Shown piece after piece: positions 2,095 to 20,629 of a stretch of 24,000 nucleotides of DNA (the stretch's first letter is position 1; the number at the start of each line of letters is the position of its first letter). Source of the DNA: Anaerobacillus sp. MEB173. GTDB lineage: Bacteria > Bacillota > Bacilli > Bacillales > JBJMAU01. The notes under the pieces are model-generated. The model did no database searches, was not told where the DNA came from, and worked only from the letters and a program-made list of their open reading frames with translations. The DNA lies in assembly GCF_052119505.1 (NCBI RefSeq), contig NZ_JBJMAU010000002.1, positions 123,759-147,758 on the forward strand, in the 5' to 3' direction. The position numbers and the translations under genes are program-made.

Positions 2095-2159
2095 TACAGT
2101 TGTATCGACACCTATCTCTCTATAAAAGGTTCATAACCTTACTTTTTCATGTCAAAATT

Positions 2160-2712
2160 ATGTACTGAGTGGTCATTTAAAAAGTAAACGCTGCGGCTTA
2201 GGTCCAGTAGGTTTTCCCAAGCGGATACCAAAGTGTCGCCACCTTGGAGGTTTCCCTTTAATTCCACCTTAGCGCTGTCACCAAACGCTAGACTAGATTA
2301 CCACTTAGACCGCACTATAATCCTTTTTAAATGTACAAAGAACAGTCTAGGAGTTTTCCTCAACAGTTCCTACCATTCTCTATCCTCTTTTGCAGAGCAG
2401 ATTTCATATGACTTTAAGCATAATCCCCTCTACTCCACTCAAGGCAGGCTACGCTACCCGTAAGTTCCCTAACTTACAAAGGTAGGTTCATACCCCCTGA
2501 AAGCAACAAAGGCTGCAACAGTAAGGCCTCCGCGGAGCAGGGTCATCGCCCACATGCCATTGTGGATCGCCCTAACTCCTTTACCCCCAGCATCGACCCA
2601 AGCCTGGGCGACTCAAGCCGACACAAGAGACTTCATCGATGTGCCCTTTAGCGGATTTTTAGGCCCGCCTTCAAGAATGGAGAACCGACTAGAATACTGC
2701 ACCACTCATTTT
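2160..2712 (-). ncRNA. ole: OLE (ornate, large, extremophilic) RNA candidate, about 550 nt; ends approximate
   Basis: The 712-nt gap between ispA (stop 2807) and the membrane ORF (start 2094) has no same-strand ORF. It is locally G+C-rich (37/60 G+C in 2521-2580 by hand count) within an AT-rich genome. Many local helices are visible on the minus-strand RNA, for example CCACA-AUGGCA-UGUGG (about 2546-2561) flanked by repeated GGCGAU, CCCUG...CAGGG (about 2496-2542), and a CCCA-GGCU-UGGG hairpin (about 2597-2608). RNA 5' UGAGUGGU (2708..2701) pairs perfectly with 3' ACCACUCA (2173..2166). Genomic context ispA-RNA-oapA-dxs is the hallmark of OLE. Confidence 0.75.
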
Positions 2713-2718
2713 ATCTAG

Positions 2719-2747
2719 ATTATATCACGGTTTTTCAGCCTGCTCAA
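2719..2747 (-). promoter_or_regulatory. Sigma-A type promoter with extended -10, positioned to start the structured RNA
   Basis: Minus strand reads TTGAGC (2747..2742), a 17-nt spacer ending in TG-A, then TATAAT (2724..2719), which gives TGATATAAT. The predicted start near 2712 is 4 nt before the 5' half of the 8-bp closing helix. Confidence 0.45.
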
Positions 2748-5339: not shown

Positions 5340-6203
5340 TTAAACTGTTGCTTTCAATTTTCTTTTCACAGATTCAATCGTATTATGAAGGAGCATTGTG
5401 ATTGTCATTGGTCCAACGCCACCTGGTACAGGAGTAAGATAAGACGCTACTTCTTTTACCTCATCAAATTCTACATCGCCACATAGCTTACCAGTAGATT
5501 CTAACCGGTTTACTCCTACATCAATGACAACTGCTCCCTCTTTCACATAGTCCGCATCAATAAACTTCGCTTTACCAACAGCAACAACCAAAATATCTGC
5601 TTGTTTTGTAATTTCTTTCATATTCTTAGTTCTTGAGTGACAATATGTAACTGTAGCATTTTCATTTAATAAGAGTTGTCCAACTGGCTTTCCGACAATG
5701 TTACTGCGACCAATAACAACAACATGTTTTCCAGAGATCTCGATGTCTTTGGATTTAATCATTTCTACAATTCCAAATGGTGTACAAGGCAAGAACGTCT
5801 CTTCACCAATCATCATTTTCCCGATGTTAATTGGATGGAATCCGTCCACATCTTTTTCAGGGCTTATCGTTTCAATCACAGCTTGTTCGGAAATGTGCTT
5901 TGGCAACGGTAATTGAACGAGTATACCGTGTATTTTTTCATCTTGATTCAAACGCTCAATTTCTGCAAGAAGCTCCTGCTCAGATACCGATTCAGGCAAT
6001 TCTTGTAATACAGAATAAATACCAACTTCATGACATGCCTTTTCTTTCGCTTTCACATAAGAACGTGATGCAGGGTCATTCCCTACCAAAATAACCGCTA
6101 GGCCAGGTTGAGTTCCATCCTTTGTTAATTTCTCTACTTCCTGCTTCATTTCTAAACGCTTATCACTAGCTAGATCCTTACCACTAATTAATATCGCTGA
6201 CAA
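5340..6203 (-). CDS. folD: Bifunctional methylenetetrahydrofolate dehydrogenase / methenyl-THF cyclohydrolase
   Basis: Strongly similar to B. subtilis FolD throughout ([64 protein letters not shown]). I moved the start from the track's GTG (6212) to TTG at 6203. The reasons are SD AAGGGAG at 8-nt spacing and N-terminus M-SAILISGK aligning with B. subtilis MTATIIDGK. Confidence 0.9.
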
Positions 6204-6222
6204 AACAACCACTCCCTTAAAA

Positions 6223-6347
6223 AATTTAGAATTAAGAATTAAGAATTTAGAATTATTAGTATGGGGTTCTTCAATGTAGTTTCTTAATTACGACTTCAGA
6301 GCTATACCGGCAGCCAATTCTACATTATAAATTATAAATTCTAAATT
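6223..6347. repeat. Palindromic heptamer-array element, copy 1 (nusB-folD spacer)
   Basis: Left arm 6223-6254 AATTTAGAATTAAGAATTAAGAATTTAGAATT equals four tandem heptamers TTTAGAA/TTAAGAA/TTAAGAA/TTTAGAA. Right arm 6316-6347 AATTCTACATTATAAATTATAAATTCTAAATT is its imperfect reverse complement (27/32 by hand alignment). A 61-bp core lies between the arms. The architecture matches 11923-12037. Confidence 0.6.
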
Positions 6348-6352
6348 ATTTT

Positions 6353-6748
6353 TTACTGTTTTTCTGAATCAACAATTTTTGACAAAACTCCGTTTACAAA
6401 GCGGCCTGATTCGTCACCGCCAAATGCTTTTGCAAGCTCAATCGCTTCATTAAAACTGACATTAGTAGGAATTTCTTCTACATATTTTATTTCATATATC
6501 GACATTCGTATTATAGCACGGTCTACGTTACCAATACGATTTAATGACCAATTTTCTAGATTATTTTCTATTACTTTATCGATTTCAGGAAGATGTTCGA
6601 GTGTACCGTAAACGAGATTTACTAAAAACTCATCTTTCTCATCAGAATCTTCTAAAACATTATTAATTGCCTCATCACGGTCCGTTCCACTAACATCAAC
6701 TTGAAAAAGGGATTGAATCGCTTTTTGTCTAGCTAATCTTCTTTTCAT
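6353..6748 (-). CDS. nusB: Transcription antitermination factor NusB
   Basis: 131 aa. [16 protein letters not shown]... N-terminus and the [19 protein letters not shown] motif are typical of NusB. Conserved position upstream of folD. Confidence 0.9.
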
Positions 6749-10595: not shown

Positions 10596-11267
10596 TTATT
10601 CTTCCCCCTTTAATTTTTTTGGTAATACTGATACGCGGTGAGTTGGGACGTCTAGTACTCTACTGACTGCCTCTACCACCATTGTTTTTACCTGAATGTT
10701 ATCAACTCCTCTAGCAACAACTACAACTCCACGTACTGCTGGTTTTTCTGTTTTTACAATCAGTGGCTTCTCACTGTCACCATTACGAATAATAACTACC
10801 TTTTCATCTCGGGTTACATCTTCTACCTTTCTTTTCCCACCTTCACGATCTGTTTCATCTGTGTTTTGTTTCTTTGTATTTTGATCCTTTTCATACACCT
10901 GCTTTTCTGTCTCTGCTAGATTAATCATCACAGATACGTCAGAAACACCAATGATTTCCTCTAAAACCTCTCTCAGCTGATTTTCATATCGGTGTTCATA
11001 ATCCTCCATTGAATAAGGTTCTGCTTGTGCTTTATTTCCAAAAACTGGTTCACTATCAGGTGATGTGTCGTCTTTGAACACTGGCATAGCAACCTGATTA
11101 GATCCAGATTCATTCGTAAAGAAATTACCTAAAATCATTAGTGCAACACCTATACATAAAACTAATGCCAAATAATGAATTGACTTTATCTTACCTTTAC
11201 CTTCCTCCTTTTTTTGAAATAATTTTGTTAACCATTGTTTATGGTTTTTTTCCTCTTTGTCCATCAC
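10596..11267 (-). CDS. spoIIIAG: Stage III sporulation protein AG
   Basis: 223 aa, single TM. The C-terminal block VRGVVVVARGVDNIQVKTMVVEAVSRVLDVPTHRVSVLPKK is characteristic of SpoIIIAG. Overlaps spoIIIAF by 4 nt. Confidence 0.8.
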   Translation of the reverse strand: MMDKEEKNHKQWLTKLFQKKEEGKGKIKSIHYLALVLCIGVALMILGNFFTNESGSNQVAMPVFKDDTSPDSEPVFGNKAQAEPYSMEDYEHRYENQLREVLEEIIGVSDVSVMINLAETEKQVYEKDQNTKKQNTDETDREGGKRKVEDVTRDEKVVIIRNGDSEKPLIVKTEKPAVRGVVVVARGVDNIQVKTMVVEAVSRVLDVPTHRVSVLPKKLKGEE

Positions 11268-11902
11268 TCATCCCCTCCTTCCAAGGCTAAAGAGATAACC
11301 TCTTTAGGAATTTGCCATTCATTCGCTAAATAAAGTTGGACTTCAGATAGATTTGCTGGCTGTTCAGTTAACTTCTTTGTTTGCAGTTCCTTCTTGGTAT
11401 CAATCATTACAACAGGTATTGCTTCTACTTTAGCTTCTTCCTCGGTCTGCTCAACTTGCTGTTTAACAACAACTTCAATACCTGTGATACTCTTGAGGAA
11501 GTCTTCTTCGTTAGCAAATTCATCAATGGAAATCAGGACTTCTTTTACTTCCAAACCATAATCGTTAACCAGCTCCTCTTCCACTTGTTGTTTCATTTGG
11601 ACAGCCACCTGTTCTGAAATATATGCACGTTGTCCCATTTCTATATCTGTTTTCTTATTTTCAATTAAATTTTCTAGCTGCTCATCAGAAAGATCCTCAT
11701 TCATATTTATTGGTTGAAAGATTGTTTCAGGGCTATGCGAAAATACCGATAATAAAGGTGTTAAAATAACAACAATTAGCATTAAACCAACAACCATTTT
11801 GACATAACGCTGAAAATTAGAGTTCGGAAGGAGTAACTCTAAAACGGTTGCCAGCAGGATAATCAAAATAATATTCGTAACCCAATCCGTAATAAACTGC
11901 AA
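11264..11902 (-). CDS. spoIIIAF: Stage III sporulation protein AF
   Basis: 212 aa, two N-terminal TM segments. N-terminus MQFITDWVTNIILIILLATVLELLLPN is typical of SpoIIIAF. TTG start with SD AAAGGGGGGAG. Position is conserved. Confidence 0.8.
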   Translation of the reverse strand: MQFITDWVTNIILIILLATVLELLLPNSNFQRYVKMVVGLMLIVVILTPLLSVFSHSPETIFQPINMNEDLSDEQLENLIENKKTDIEMGQRAYISEQVAVQMKQQVEEELVNDYGLEVKEVLISIDEFANEEDFLKSITGIEVVVKQQVEQTEEEAKVEAIPVVMIDTKKELQTKKLTEQPANLSEVQLYLANEWQIPKEVISLALEGGDE

Positions 11903-11922
11903 GAAACTCCCCCCTTTCGTTA

Positions 11923-12037
11923 GTTTAGAGTTGAAAGTTTAGAGTTTAGAGTGTTTGATTGTACCTCTTGGGAGACCCAAAACCCCTCATTGAATTTGCT
12001 CGAGATAACTCTAAACTCTACACTCTAAATTCTAAAC
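11923..12037. repeat. Palindromic heptamer-array element, copy 2 (inside the spoIIIA operon, spoIIIAE-spoIIIAF spacer)
   Basis: Left arm 11923-11954 GTTTAGAGTTGAAAGTTTAGAGTTTAGAGTGT equals heptamers TTTAGAG/TTGAAAG/TTTAGAG/TTTAGAG. Right arm 12007-12037 AACTCTAAACTCTACACTCTAAATTCTAAAC is its imperfect reverse complement (about 26/31 by hand). The 52-bp core contains a small TTGGG-AGA-CCCAA hairpin. Confidence 0.6.
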
Positions 12038-12044
12038 TAGCTTT

Positions 12045-13214
12045 TCACCTCACCATCAGCGACAGGTTCCCGGCGGCGATGATGATTGTAATAGCGAGGA
12101 AAAACATTAAGCATACTGTTGCCAGTGCTGCGAAGATGAAAATGACGGCCTTTCCGATTGTTGATAGGCATTCGATAACCGGTCCTCCACCTAGTGGTTG
12201 CAAGACTGCCGCTGCAATATTAAAGATGAGAGCTAACGATAAGACCTTTATTGCCGGAAACGCACAAAGGAGTAAAAGGATAGCAAGACCGGCAATACCA
12301 ACTGTATTTTTCAGTAGTACAGATGCACTCATCACGGTATCAGCCGCATCGGTAAACATTCTCCCGACAACTGGAACAAAATTACCGGTTACAAACTTTG
12401 CCGTTCGTATGGTAATTCCGTCAGCAACAGCGGTTGTTGCTCCTTGAACGGAAATAATGCCCAAAAAGATGGTTAAAAAAATACCTAACGCACCAACTGC
12501 GACATTCCGTAGTAGATTGGCAAGCTTGGTCACTTTATAATGGTCACTTAATATACTTACAATGCTAAGTATTGCTGATAGAAACAATAATGGCATAACA
12601 AAATGCTGGATTAATAACCCACTTGTATTGACCAAAAGGACAATTAACGGATGGAAAAAAGCTACTGATGTCAAACTCCCTATCGAAGCCATTAACGCTA
12701 ACAACAATGGTAATAATGCAATCATAAAATTGATCATATTACTAATCGCCTCTTGCGCGTAGCTAATGGCTACATGGAAGCTGTTTAAGGCAATAATGAT
12801 TAACACCATGTATGTGATCGCATAAGCCACCTTACTAATCGCATGTTGTTCAAAGGCGTTTTGCATTTGCTGCAGTATCATACTGAAAACCGTCAGCAAG
12901 ATTAACGTTCCTAGTAGCTTGCCATTGACGACTAATTCATGAAATAAGTATTTAACGAGTCCGGTCAACCATTCCTTAATTGAAAATTGTTTCTCTCCTT
13001 TAACGAACTCCATAAACGAGCCTTTTTGACTTTCTGGAAGAAAACCTCCATACTCAGTGACAACTTCCTCCCAATACGCTCGGATATCATCTATTCCTAA
13101 TTGTTCTAATTGTCGTTCGATGAGGTTTTCTTGGGGTGATGGTTCCTGTTCAGCATGAACTGAAGCGATTGGTAGAAAGAAAAGAACTAATAAAATGAAA
13201 AACCAATGTTTCAT
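12045..13214 (-). CDS. spoIIIAE: Stage III sporulation protein AE (polytopic membrane protein with signal peptide)
   Basis: 389 aa, with an N-terminal signal-like segment and then many TM helices. Fifth gene of the colinear cluster (B. subtilis AE is 399 aa). Confidence 0.85.
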   Translation of the reverse strand: MKHWFFILLVLFFLPIASVHAEQEPSPQENLIERQLEQLGIDDIRAYWEEVVTEYGGFLPESQKGSFMEFVKGEKQFSIKEWLTGLVKYLFHELVVNGKLLGTLILLTVFSMILQQMQNAFEQHAISKVAYAITYMVLIIIALNSFHVAISYAQEAISNMINFMIALLPLLLALMASIGSLTSVAFFHPLIVLLVNTSGLLIQHFVMPLLFLSAILSIVSILSDHYKVTKLANLLRNVAVGALGIFLTIFLGIISVQGATTAVADGITIRTAKFVTGNFVPVVGRMFTDAADTVMSASVLLKNTVGIAGLAILLLLCAFPAIKVLSLALIFNIAAAVLQPLGGGPVIECLSTIGKAVIFIFAALATVCLMFFLAITIIIAAGNLSLMVR

Positions 13215-17024: not shown

Positions 17025-17112
17025 GTTCTGTTCCTCCTATGTAATTATCAATTCAAACCTCTATTTAACTAAAGATTTAATTTATATTTAAATTTTACAT
17101 TTTTAAATTGTT

Positions 17113-20547: not shown

Positions 20548-20629
20548 ACAGATTATGCTTACCTGGTAAAGGACGATACAATGACGCCAAAACTTCGGTT
20601 AATAAAAAAAGCAACCATAACTTTATTTG

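Follow-up and report, generated by a model that had tools for sequence, protein, structure and literature searches.

Convergent heptamer arrays in operon spacers of Anaerobacillus sp. MEB173: a candidate family of dispersed palindromic repeats in alkaliphilic Bacillaceae

Within an operon of Anaerobacillus sp. MEB173, nusB is separated from folD by an oversized spacer that is almost entirely taken up by one element, with tandem heptamers and their mirror image on either side of a core. This raises the question of what kind of element occupies the junction, whether it acts on the expression of its neighbours, and whether it belongs to this locus or to a family of repeats. Here, we address these points for a window of 24,000 nt (the whole stretch of DNA that was analysed; contig NZ_JBJMAU010000002.1, positions 123,759 to 147,758) and for syntenic loci of related bacteria. 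An earlier, sequence-only reading had considered a leaky terminator, an RNase III target, a translational occluder, arrayed protein-binding sites, or a MITE/REP-like mobile repeat.

Two heptamer palindromes within operons

On the plus strand, the nusB-folD spacer reads TTTAGAA TTAAGAA TTAAGAA TTTAGAA at 6225-6252 and, mirrored, AATTCTA CATTATA AATTATA AATTCTA at 6316-6343, just as described before (element 1). A second copy of the same architecture, previously placed at 11923-12037, was recovered with limits of 11921-12039 between spoIIIAE and spoIIIAF (element 2). Each comprises four TTTAGAR-type heptamers, a core of 55-61 nt and four mirrored heptamers and, at a size of 120-135 bp, fills its intra-operon spacer from the upstream stop codon to the downstream SD (Table 1). 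Element 1 starts 2 nt behind the nusB stop codon (TAA, 6355-6353) and its end meets the folD SD; its arms (36 nt, with a 61 nt gap) were 83% complementary in an inverted-repeat search. For element 2, the distance from the spoIIIAE stop codon (TGA, 12047-12045) is 5 nt, that from its end to the SD ∼5 nt, and the arms (32 nt, 55 nt gap) are 88% complementary. Element 1 is co-oriented with the operon and presumably co-transcribed. The excess length that had been noted for its spacer stands, yet the reported 139 nt needs correction: counted to the GTG of the ORF finder, the spacer has 140 nt; counted to the TTG at 6203, the start that fits the N-termini of relatives (MSA..ISGK), it has 149 nt.

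Table 1. Features of the two elements in the window, their flanking genes, and further elements in relatives (coordinates of the latter refer to the respective locus).
Feature	Coordinates	Strand	Remarks
Element 1, whole palindrome	6219..6351	-	inverted arms; pattern matches in both; nhmmer E=0.014
Element 1, 5' arm (transcript)	6316..6351	-	TAGAATT TATAATT TATAATG TAGAATT; no C
Element 1, core, 61 nt	6255..6315	-	alignments; contains CGGTATAGCTCTGAAGTCGTAA
Element 1, 3' arm (transcript)	6219..6254	-	(TTCTAAA/TTCTTAA)x4, then UUUUUU; abuts folD SD
folD ribosome-binding region	6203..6218	-	SD AAGGGAG 6218-6212; probable TTG start 6203-6201
nusB, upstream of element 1	6353..6748	-	TIGR01951, E=3.3e-41
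folD, downstream of element 1	5340..6212	-	NCBIfam FolD models, E about 1e-126
Element 2, whole	11921..12039	-	inverted arms; RNA fold; nhmmer E=3.5e-8
Element 2, 5' arm (transcript)	12008..12039	-	TAGAATT TAGAGTG TAGAGTT TAGAGTT = UAG-N4 repeated
Element 2, core, 55 nt	11953..12007	-	internal GGGAGACCC hairpin and CTCGAGCAAAT motif
Element 2, 3' arm (transcript)	11921..11952	-	(CTCTAAA)-type units, then CGAAAGGGGGGAG (SD); spoIIIAF TTG start at 11902
spoIIIAE, upstream of element 2	12045..13214	-	TIGR02829, E=4e-152; protein 100% identical to that of Anaerobacillus sp. MEB173
spoIIIAF, downstream of element 2	11264..11902	-	TIGR02896, E=7e-32
Further element, L121	7261-7347
Further element, L123	7309-7422
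Further element, L124	7252-7345
Further element, L124	11165-11250
Further element, L124	20490-20590
Further element, L125	7022-7090		one arm lost
Further element, L125	20325-20425
Further element, L125	21078-21161
Further element, L194	1667-1760

The arrays are real and non-random. The period-7 arrays called by TRF are these four arms (88%, 81%, 83% and 84% matches; 4.4-4.9 copies), next to one further call in a weak AT-rich run at 17087-17109. A degenerate four-unit pattern matched exactly the four arms, while shuffled sequence gave a mean of 0.03 matches and none of 100 shuffles reached four. Across the whole 24 kb, an unbiased autocorrelation scan revealed nothing at period 7 beyond the two elements, and nothing at periods 5, 6, 8 and 9. 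Neither element matched an Rfam family at the gathering threshold, and at E<=10 the element regions yielded merely chance snoRNA/CRISPR matches far below it. The only Rfam match in the window is an OLE RNA elsewhere.

Could element 1 be a leaky or bidirectional intrinsic terminator, with an A tract, a hairpin and a U tract? Indeed, its palindrome is bordered by A6 and T6 runs, the transcript continues beyond the 3' arm with UUUUUU, and some copies from other phyla (e.g. L059, among the matches listed) have T-run ends. Yet a terminator scan made no call at either element, and a G+C-rich stem of 5-14 bp with a loop of 3-8 nt and a U tract was found at neither. Instead, the stem of element 1 is AU-rich and bulged and encloses a core of 61 nt, its fold is no more stable than that of shuffles (z = +0.84), and the U tract is absent from the transcript of element 2 as well as from most relatives' copies. 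Besides, folD and spoIIIAF-AH downstream lack a convincing promoter of their own: the TTTAGA-17-TAGAAT match inside the arm is at chance level, as are promoter-like matches in the region altogether (31 found, 26 expected), and four such heptamers in a row will always contain it. We thus regard termination, plain or leaky, as very improbable. Translational occlusion finds no support either, as the SD lies just outside the stem in both copies and, for folD, so does the probable TTG start.

Copies, gains and losses among relatives

To place the two elements, unbiased period-7 scans and an nhmmer profile search were applied to syntenic loci from ten related genomes. We chose a sequence profile over a covariance model because tandem units make the pairing register ambiguous; the consensus RNA structure of four foreign copies gave only 10 pairs. 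The searches brought to light at least eight more elements, distributed over five other spacers, all the sampled Bacillaceae copies coming from one syntenic, co-oriented gene block. L124 and L125 carry 3-4 copies per 21 kb, compared with two in the 24-kb window, the copies established in MEB173. A profile built exclusively from the elements of other genomes recovered element 2 and element 1 (E-values in Table 1), and five of the relatives' elements have a common core, GG..GCT[TA]CGnAGC..CTAA[AC]A.AA. CGGTATAGCTCTGAAGTCGTAA in the core of element 1 weakly resembles the GCTTCGnAGC core of the Anaerobacillus copies. For both window copies, the likeness to that core is weak, and their own cores could not be credibly aligned to each other; they are assigned to the family mainly by arm type and architecture.

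Might the two elements still be independent local accidents, that is, unrelated heptamer microsatellites? Heptanucleotide repeats are the commonest class of long simple sequence repeats (SSRs) in many bacteria (Mrazek 2007, cited after PMC4679880), and the unalignable cores in the window would fit such an origin. On the other hand, all period-7 arrays in 171 kb of Bacillaceae sequence are TAGARTK-like and nearly all stand in convergent pairs, several copies have a core in common, the profile E-values favour a relationship, and heptamer types other than the TAGARTK-like ones formed no pairs in other phyla among the matches listed. This reading is therefore already disfavoured, and we give it very little credence.

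Occupancy differs even between close relatives. The nusB-folD array is found in MEB173 only and has no counterpart in seven relatives, whose spacers range from 18 to ∼218 nt. At the spoIIIAE-AF junction, L194 has a spacer of 106 nt with an element, as opposed to 13 nt in L125 and L196, whose SpoIIIAE proteins are 96% and 99.7% identical. Next to the element-rich genomes (L124, L125 and MEB173) there are element-free relatives, e.g. L122 and L126; Desertibacillus and A. alkalilacustris belong to the element-free relatives. The earlier comparison with a minimal spacer in Bacillus subtilis holds as an analogy only, MEB173 not being a close relative and spacer length varying as stated. Together with the relatives' copies and the profile E-values, these differences support the suggestion of a MITE/REP-like family as opposed to a locus-specific structure. 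Between occupied and empty sites (L124 vs L127; L194 vs L125 and L196), no consistent target-site duplication was seen, merely ambiguous TAA/TGA/TAG triplets in AT-rich flanks, and the nusB-folD spacers of five species gave no credible alignment. No transposase accompanied any copy in the loci examined (an IS110 in L121 is unrelated). A candidate at L125 13066-13146, a spoIIIA terminator preceded by an AATTTAA array, is now considered doubtful. Separately, the relatives contain a classical-looking MITE with terminal inverted repeats GAGTGAATTTCATAAT and a TTAAA duplication, unlike the heptamer elements.

The arms themselves vary in a patterned way. Arrays in relatives mostly have 3-5 units, and in many of these relatives the stop codon is part of the first unit. 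Unit type tracks the genome more than the locus, with TGTAGAA at three L124 loci, and TTWTGAG at three L125 loci and in L194. Where an arm differs from one genome to the next, its partner shows the mirrored difference (GAATGTA/TACATTC in L124 vs GAGTTTT/AAAACTC in L125), and within element 1 a variant unit was doubled separately in each arm, AAGAATT twice in one and TATAATT twice in the other. This doubling and the genome-bound unit type speak for slippage-type change of the arms.

The mirrored changes are among the evidence for a selected cis-acting RNA, namely an intercistronic stem of ∼30 bp that, as a target of RNase III or an obstacle to 3' exonucleases, would govern processing or stability and thereby set the nusB:folD and spoIIIAE:spoIIIAF expression ratios. 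REP sequences between malE and malF are a precedent for a barrier of this kind, and bacterial RNase III needs roughly 20 bp, which the stems of elements 1 and 2 (32-36 bp) exceed. Besides, both elements lie inside operons, on the transcribed strand and exactly between stop codon and SD, and element 2 folds with significant stability (-40 kcal/mol, z = -2.85 vs shuffles). Comparable repeats of Xanthomonas are transcribed, too (PMC4692102). However, mirrored arm changes could equally arise by templated copying without selection, the fold of element 1 is no better than that of shuffles, and arm pairing decays in several copies: in the L124 spoIIIAE-AF element, ∼4 of the 7 positions of a unit are paired, and one arm has been lost from L125 7022-7090. 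Close relatives do without an element at the same junction, and among the matches listed from other phyla, copies occur between divergent genes as well. Selection for such an RNA therefore seems doubtful to us, albeit a possibility to be taken seriously.

Orientation, unit conservation and comparison with described repeats

In every paired Bacillaceae element, the G-containing arm comes 5' on both strands, i.e. the arrays converge. The consensus unit is T-A-G-A-R-T-K, with G3, A4 and T6 conserved, although the register of the logo was picked by similarity to TAGAATT, which inflates the apparent conservation. A one-arm-pattern scan of genome contigs extended the comparison to at least 120 loci in Cyanobacteria, Bacteroidota and other phyla. 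Among the matches listed, convergent outnumber other arrangements by 24 to 2 and by 17 to 3; all 18 of 18 hairpin examples are intergenic, between ORFs in any orientation, with divergent genes flanking some of them; and TTTAGAG arrays, AT-rich as they are, persist in genomes of 59-67% G+C. Viral contigs contributed 66 loci with only ∼4-5 real hairpin pairs, and so give no sign of a phage link. A stop triplet is present in 74 of 82 G-arm units. Three-frame stop codons were nevertheless ruled out as the cause of the convergent rule, since YTCTAAA also has TAA and GGGAATC has no stop.

The constant orientation and the conserved G3, A4 and T6 keep alive the idea of arrayed protein-binding sites. 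The arrays may accordingly be read as putative binding sites of a trans-acting factor that recognises 7-nt repeats and maintains or spreads the elements, be it an RNA binder like HutP or a DNA/ssDNA binder comparable to RAYT with REP/REPIN or to omega-type repressors on contiguous heptads. In its favour, the usual number of units is four, a genome-specific unit type across loci would be expected if unit and factor co-evolve, AT-rich TTTAGAG arrays are kept in the G+C-rich genomes mentioned above, the Xanthomonas pairs are always convergent, and the conserved positions recur in GGGANTN.

HutP offers the most concrete comparison. Its site in the hut leader of B. subtilis (UAG-N4-UAG-N4-UAG) consists of UAG triplets 4 nt apart and is the 5' part of a hairpin that HutP prevents from forming; structural work reportedly used (UUUAGUU)3 RNA, which the 5' arm of element 2 matches. 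In that arm, UAG-N4 recurs in all four units, in element 1 in two of four. Many units, however, lack UAG (TATAATT, ATGAATT, TTGAGTT), and unit sequence varies from genome to genome, the two window copies themselves being unlike (A or G at position 5). A HutP-type antiterminator site has two sets of three NAG triplets, 4 nt apart, upstream of or within the terminator of a hut operon, and nusB-folD and spoIIIA offer neither a hut operon nor a terminator. To our knowledge, HutP is restricted to Bacillales and hut operons, whereas the heptamer architecture occurs in many phyla, including ones without HutP. In view of this and of the inflated logo, we hold binding by a 7-nt-repeat factor to be improbable.

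A bolder version takes convergent four-unit NNGANTN arrays as one cross-phylum class with fixed-polarity recognition by a putative conserved trans-acting factor. Its members would include TAGARTK here, GGGAATC in Xanthomonas, and TTTAGAG/TTGGAAT in Acidobacteria, Planctomycetota, Armatimonadota and Bacteroidota. Four 7-nt units in each arm would be the target of this factor, which would preserve the elements, make them uniform or mobilise them, much like RAYT in the case of REPINs, with the unit sequence co-evolving with it in each genome. We regard this as a long shot. Were it true, G-quadruplexes would have no part in the four-unit and convergent rules, as demonstrated by the AT-rich variant of the Bacillota.

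What described system do the elements resemble most? The closest described analogue comes from Xanthomonas and Nostoc, where four-unit (GGGAATC)n or GGGGA(C/T)T arrays stand in convergent pairs (Rehm 2015, PMC4692102). The Xanthomonas repeats, mostly of four units, amount to 70-75 convergent pairs per genome, with 89-93% of them intergenic; they are located beside stop codons and are transcribed. In these pairs, the G-strand array lies ∼0-50 nt from the upstream stop codon or overlaps it, mostly between co-oriented genes, and the same spacers are occupied in related species with repeats of differing length and sequence (PMC4692102). The MEB173 elements are alike in their four-unit tandem heptamers in close convergent pairs, in their intergenic position no more than ∼50 nt past the upstream stop codon and in the conserved unit positions G3, A4 and T6. 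They differ in their host, a member of the Bacillota, in the conserved core between the arms of several copies, and in lacking GGG or GGGG tracts, with one or two isolated G per unit. Rehm et al. ascribed the four-unit preference to G-quadruplex or i-motif formation (PMC4692102), of which the AT-rich MEB173 units, without any G run, are incapable.

Other known repeats match in part. Cyanobacterial STRR/TAACTGA repeats (MacGregor 2015, PMC4679880) and heptanucleotide SSRs in general (Mrazek 2007) have a 7-nt unit, an intergenic position and indels in steps of seven in common with the elements; their forward units, too, give stops in three frames, may overlap gene ends and are patchy across phyla (PMC4679880). 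These repeats are overwhelmingly single direct arrays, with one of 170 TAACTGA sets inverted and most located just upstream of start codons (MacGregor 2015, PMC4679880), whereas the heptamer elements are defined by a convergent pair around a core. Like MITEs (bcr1 of the Bacillus cereus group, RUP, Correia), the elements measure 100-150 bp, are non-coding and dispersed between genes, have terminal inverted repeats around a short core, vary in presence between close relatives and would form RNA hairpins when co-transcribed. Unlike in MITEs, the inverted repeats are internally repetitive and vary by copy, cores are poorly conserved, and neither a consistent target-site duplication nor a parent IS was found in the loci examined. 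With REPs and REPINs, finally, they have in common that they are extragenic imperfect palindromes, often just past stop codons in operons, of genome-specific type and fixed polarity, the GTAG head 5' of the REP palindrome recalling the TGTAGAG or TTTAGAG units here; still, GTAG or TTAG stands in every 5'-arm unit instead of one single head. A REPIN consists of two inverted REPs in a hairpin of ∼100 nt, and REPs act as mRNA 3' stabilisers. A REP arm, in contrast, is one G+C-rich unit of 20-40 nt where the elements here have tandem heptamers, and we know of no REP/RAYT system described in Bacillaceae. For the element sequences or heptamer palindromes in Bacillus, our literature search found no description; the Bhal-1 stem-loop family of B. 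halodurans (PMC2267715) was published without its sequence in the text.

Proposed origin and implications

On balance, we lean towards a REP/MITE-like, dispersed non-coding palindromic heptamer repeat of Anaerobacillus and neighbouring alkaliphilic Bacillaceae, which is co-transcribed and tolerated by its host operons. Its arms are short tandem arrays, typically of four TAGARTK units, that converge on a variable core of 15-60 nt. New copies might arise by insertion or copying into spacers directly after a stop codon, and the arms may then change fast, both by replication slippage in the 7-nt repeat and by templated correction from arm to arm and from copy to copy. This could explain why the units of one element, and for the most part those of one genome, are uniform. 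The operon transcript is expected to fold into a long, imperfect, AU-rich hairpin, whose base would return the upstream stop codon and the downstream SD to a distance of ∼10-15 nt. By reuniting the two, folding could render an insertion nearly neutral for a tight operon junction. If expression is affected at all, the effect is probably modest and secondary: by blocking 3' exonucleases or attracting a double-strand-specific RNase, the hairpin may uncouple the stability of the flanking cistrons.

Some observations sit uneasily with this dispersed-repeat explanation. The repeated occupation of the same spacers across lineages needs either a strong target preference or an ancient presence followed by precise loss. 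Moreover, neither simple slippage nor neutrality accounts for the strict convergence of the arrays or for the conserved G3, A4 and T6.

For genome annotation, the elements account for oversized spacers in tight operons such as nusB-folD and spoIIIA as insertions, and should not be taken for terminators, sRNAs or promoters. Beyond that, paired heptamer arrays were known in detail only from Xanthomonas and Nostoc, and an AT-rich lineage of the Bacillota now turns out to have the same anatomy: arms of four units that converge, a location directly next to the stop codon, and fast change of unit sequence and array length. As the units of this lineage cannot form quadruplexes, the anatomy would seem to reflect something else, for example the way the arrays are manufactured or a factor that reads a 7-nt register. 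Spore-forming bacilli thereby provide a second, genetically tractable group in which paired heptamer arrays can be studied, and if confirmed genome-wide, their apparent genome-specific unit type would be a clear case of concerted evolution of dispersed non-coding repeats.

Heptamer arrays at two operon junctions

The sequence-only reading had described tandem heptamers with mirrored arms between nusB and folD (element 1) and a second copy of the same architecture (element 2), which NCBIfam matches place between spoIIIAE and spoIIIAF. Both proved real. On the plus strand, element 1 reads TTTAGAA/TTAAGAA/TTAAGAA/TTTAGAA (6225-6252), mirrored by AATTCTA/CATTATA/AATTATA/AATTCTA (6316-6343). A repeat finder recovered the inverted arms of both elements, Tandem Repeats Finder (TRF) placed period-7 arrays of 4.4-4.9 units at precisely these four arms, and a degenerate four-unit pattern matched them alone in the 24 kb; none of 100 shuffles reached four matches (mean 0.03). 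Sliding autocorrelation over the 24 kb gave no comparable run at periods 5, 6, 8 or 9. The two cores, i.e. the stretches between the arms, do not align with each other. Besides, an AT-rich period-7 run (AATTTAA/AAATGTA/AAATTTA/AATATAA; TRF score 30) directly follows the stop codon in the pepQ-efp spacer; it has neither a recognisable partner arm nor a match to the family profile, and could represent a third copy in decay or merely low-complexity sequence.

Coordinates of heptamer-array elements and of other features of the compared loci
Feature	Locus	Position	Strand	Details
Element 1, inverted arms	window	6219-6254 / 6316-6351	-	36 nt, 83% complementary, 61 nt apart
Element 2, inverted arms	window	11921-11952 / 12008-12039	-	32 nt, 88% complementary, 55 nt apart
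nusB	window	6353-6748	-	NCBIfam
folD	window	5340-6212	-	NCBIfam
Sigma-A-like match	window	6225-6253	+
Sigma-A-like match	window	6345-6317	-
pepQ-efp run	window	17040-17112	-
OLE RNA	window	2153-2721	-
Element, orf133-DUF2619	L121	7261-7347		units TGTAGAG
Element, efp-DUF2619	L123	7309-7422		units TTATGAA
Element, orf132-DUF2619	L124	7252-7345
Element, spoIIIAE-AF	L124	11165-11250		junction identical to that of element 2
Element, ispA-OLE	L124	20490-20590
Element, ispA-OLE	L125	20325-20425
Element, orf133-DUF2619	L125	7022-7090		single arm
Element, downstream of OLE	L125	21078-21161
Element, spoIIIAE-AF	L194	1667-1760
Distinct insertion, spoIIIAD-AE	L125	9824-10000
Distinct insertion, spoIIIAD-AE	L196	452-627
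Distinct insertion, nusB-folD	L121	19100-19190
IS110-family transposase gene	L121	13379-14611
25-nt ispA-OLE spacer	L127	~20600-20625
Cross-phylum examples	L055	3727-3825
	L065	1474-1567; 7071-7247
	L017	1969-2051
	L080	6636-6731

Both elements lie inside operons, on the transcribed (minus) strand. Element 1 begins 2 nt past the nusB stop codon and ends at the base before the folD Shine-Dalgarno (SD) sequence (AAGGGAG, 6218-6212), while element 2 begins 5 nt past the spoIIIAE stop codon and ends ∼5 nt ahead of GGGGGGAG, the SD of spoIIIAF, which starts with TTG at 11902. Judged by the MSA..ISGK of relatives, folD probably starts at TTG 6203, 8 nt downstream of its SD (product MSAILISGK); the GTG at 6212 chosen by the ORF finder (6201-6212, minus strand) is probably too far upstream. 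Element-free relatives have spacers of 13-18 nt at the junctions compared, and paired arms would bring the stop codon about as close to the following SD. Since the SD lies outside the stem in both copies, the suggested role as a translational occluder is unsupported. Nor did a leaky terminator hold up: the terminator scan returned no terminator-like site at either element, the RNA fold of element 1 (-19.5 kcal/mol, z = +0.84) is no better than shuffles, and element 2, whose fold is stable (-40 kcal/mol, z = -2.85), has no U tract. An Rfam search of the elements returned nothing, even at E<=10.

As a side observation, TTTAGA-17 nt-TAGAAT, which agrees with a sigma-A promoter at 9/12 positions, is inherent in any TTTAGAA array of four units; such matches point into the core from both sides, and the minus-strand arm of element 1 also holds the perfect hexamer TATAAT twice. 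In total, the region has about as many promoter-like sites as expected by chance. HutP binds UAG-N4 repeats, a pattern found in the 5' arm of element 2, yet context and unit variation speak against a HutP site.

A repeat family with recent turnover

We sampled the syntenic 21-kb region of seven relatives (L121-L127) and shorter contigs (L194-L197) of organisms closely related to A. arseniciselenatis, and searched them with a profile and with unbiased period-7 scans. SpoIIIAE of the window shares 100% identity with the Anaerobacillus sp. MEB173 protein and only ∼77-82% with those of the next relatives. Elements of the same build occupy several spacers of these relatives, and a profile made solely of four non-window elements detected both window copies (E=3.5e-8 for element 2, E=0.014 for element 1); the arms supply most of this signal, the cores of the window copies showing little resemblance. 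This supports a repeat family rather than a locus-specific structure. Five of the relatives' elements share a core of roughly GG..GCT[T/A]CGnAGC..CTAA[A/C]A.AA. Three or four copies each were found in the 21 kb of A. isosaccharinicus (L124) and A. arseniciselenatis (L125), and no clear copy in those of L122, L126 and L127.

Presence varies by locus. In the nusB-folD spacer, the array is present in MEB173 and absent from the relatives examined, whose spacers (18-218 nt) cannot be aligned among themselves. At the spoIIIAE-AF junction, MEB173, L124 and L194 carry an element, L126 and L127 apparently a degenerate one, and L122, L123, L125 and L196 have just 13-17 nt. As L194 is occupied while L125 and L196 are empty, with SpoIIIAE 96% (L194) and 99.7% (L196) identical to that of L125, occupation of this junction changed recently.

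The ispA-OLE spacer carries an element in A. isosaccharinicus and A. arseniciselenatis and none in the window, where OLE (ornate large extremophilic) RNA downstream of ispA is full-length (487.6 bits, model positions 1-616 of 616) and fits an alkaliphilic or anaerobic member of the Bacillota. In the metagenome-assembled L127, this spacer has only 25 nt, TCTTTTGTTGGATTCCTACAGAAAA, which is able to fold into a small hairpin and is similar to about one unit of the L124 arm; either a deletion left it behind or it represents a proto-element.

The arms share the unit consensus T-A-G-A-R-T-K in a common register, with A4 (0.83), T6 (0.90) and G3 (0.62) best kept among 82 units, values inflated by picking the register for likeness to TAGAATT. 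On either strand, the 5' arm (the G arm) is free of C and its partner free of G. Units sharing an element or a genome resemble each other more than units at one locus in different genomes: TGTAGAA-type units recur at three loci of A. isosaccharinicus, and TTWTGAG-type units at four loci of A. arseniciselenatis and L194, two of them shared with A. isosaccharinicus. Unit changes are mirrored as complementary changes in the partner arm; in some copies the arms complement each other poorly or one of them is gone. In element 1, the inner units differ between arms, each variant being doubled in its own arm (AAGAATT x2 vs TATAATT x2), a signature of slippage, not of selection for pairing. We infer that arms would evolve by slippage of the 7-nt unit together with copying templated by the other arm or by another copy.

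A second, distinct palindromic insertion of ∼125 nt was seen in the spoIIIAD-AE spacer of L125 and L196 and in the nusB-folD spacer of L121. Its ends read GAGTGAATTTCATAAT...ATTATGAAATTCA; with TTAAA on either side and absence from the corresponding spacer of the close relative L194, it looks like a classical MITE with target-site duplication. Besides, the first 50 nt of the four independent metagenome/MAG contigs L194-L197 show that all begin at one base just upstream of spoIIIAD, pointing to a repeat at which assemblies break. In Anaerobacillus sp. CMMVII (L121), an IS110-family transposase gene inserted downstream of spoIIIAH adjoins a long perfect hairpin (GTAGCTTTTAGGTCGTAACCAAGC...) and has no heptamer arrays around it.

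Convergent array pairs beyond Anaerobacillus

A cross-phylum sample of at least 120 loci (L001-L120), selected only for one TTTAGAR array, contained the same architecture. Among the matches listed, an inverted partner lay downstream (G arm first, arrays converging) in 24 of 133 arrays and upstream in only two; an independent pairing scan gave 17 convergent against 3. All 18 distinct elements among these matches are intergenic, with ORFs tight on both sides in tandem, convergent or divergent arrangement. Units are TTTAGAG, TTTAGAA or TTGGAAT, and the first often overlaps the upstream stop codon. Hosts among the matches listed comprise Acidobacteria, Planctomycetota, Armatimonadota, Bacteroidota, Cyanobacteria, Deltaproteobacteria and a Ruminococcus, two loci having 59% and 67% G+C. 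No pairs of other heptamer types were found in the listed loci, and viral contigs held few convergent pairs.

Among long simple-sequence repeats of bacteria, heptanucleotides are the most common, which has been ascribed to polymerase slippage (Mrazek 2007, as relayed in PMC4679880); TAACTGA repeats almost invariably occur as one direct array (PMC4679880). The closest description found in our literature search concerns (GGGAATC)n repeats in Xanthomonas and related Nostoc repeats (Rehm et al. 2015, PMC4692102). These have the consensus GGGANTN with a clear mode of four units, form 70-75 always convergent pairs per genome, are 89-93% intergenic, near or overlapping the upstream stop codon, and are transcribed; shared spacers of two species hold repeats of differing length and sequence (PMC4692102). 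No function was found, and the authors tied the four-unit preference to G-quadruplex formation (PMC4692102). The Anaerobacillus elements match all anatomical points bar the G tracts, and lacking these, they cannot be explained by G-quadruplexes.

Their likeness to classical MITEs is only partial: neither a consistent target-site duplication, for which the sequence-only reading had proposed a check, nor a parent IS was found at the loci examined. REP/REPIN elements are extragenic hairpins whose sequence is genome-specific, whose polarity is fixed and which have a cognate transposase; they would offer the best functional analogy, although their arms, unlike those described here, are not tandem heptamers.

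Taken together, the element is a real, repeated, fast-evolving, non-coding palindrome, and an AT-rich Bacillota variant of little-studied convergent heptamer-array pairs. Most likely it rides in operon junctions as a REP/MITE-like passenger, tolerated because folding would restore the stop-to-SD distance, and a near-neutral repeat is the most probable explanation. However, this passenger account explains neither why the convergent polarity is fixed nor why the unit skeleton is conserved, which keeps alive the alternative that a putative factor may recognise the arrays. The anatomy and evolutionary pattern of these elements are unusual and essentially undescribed for Firmicutes.
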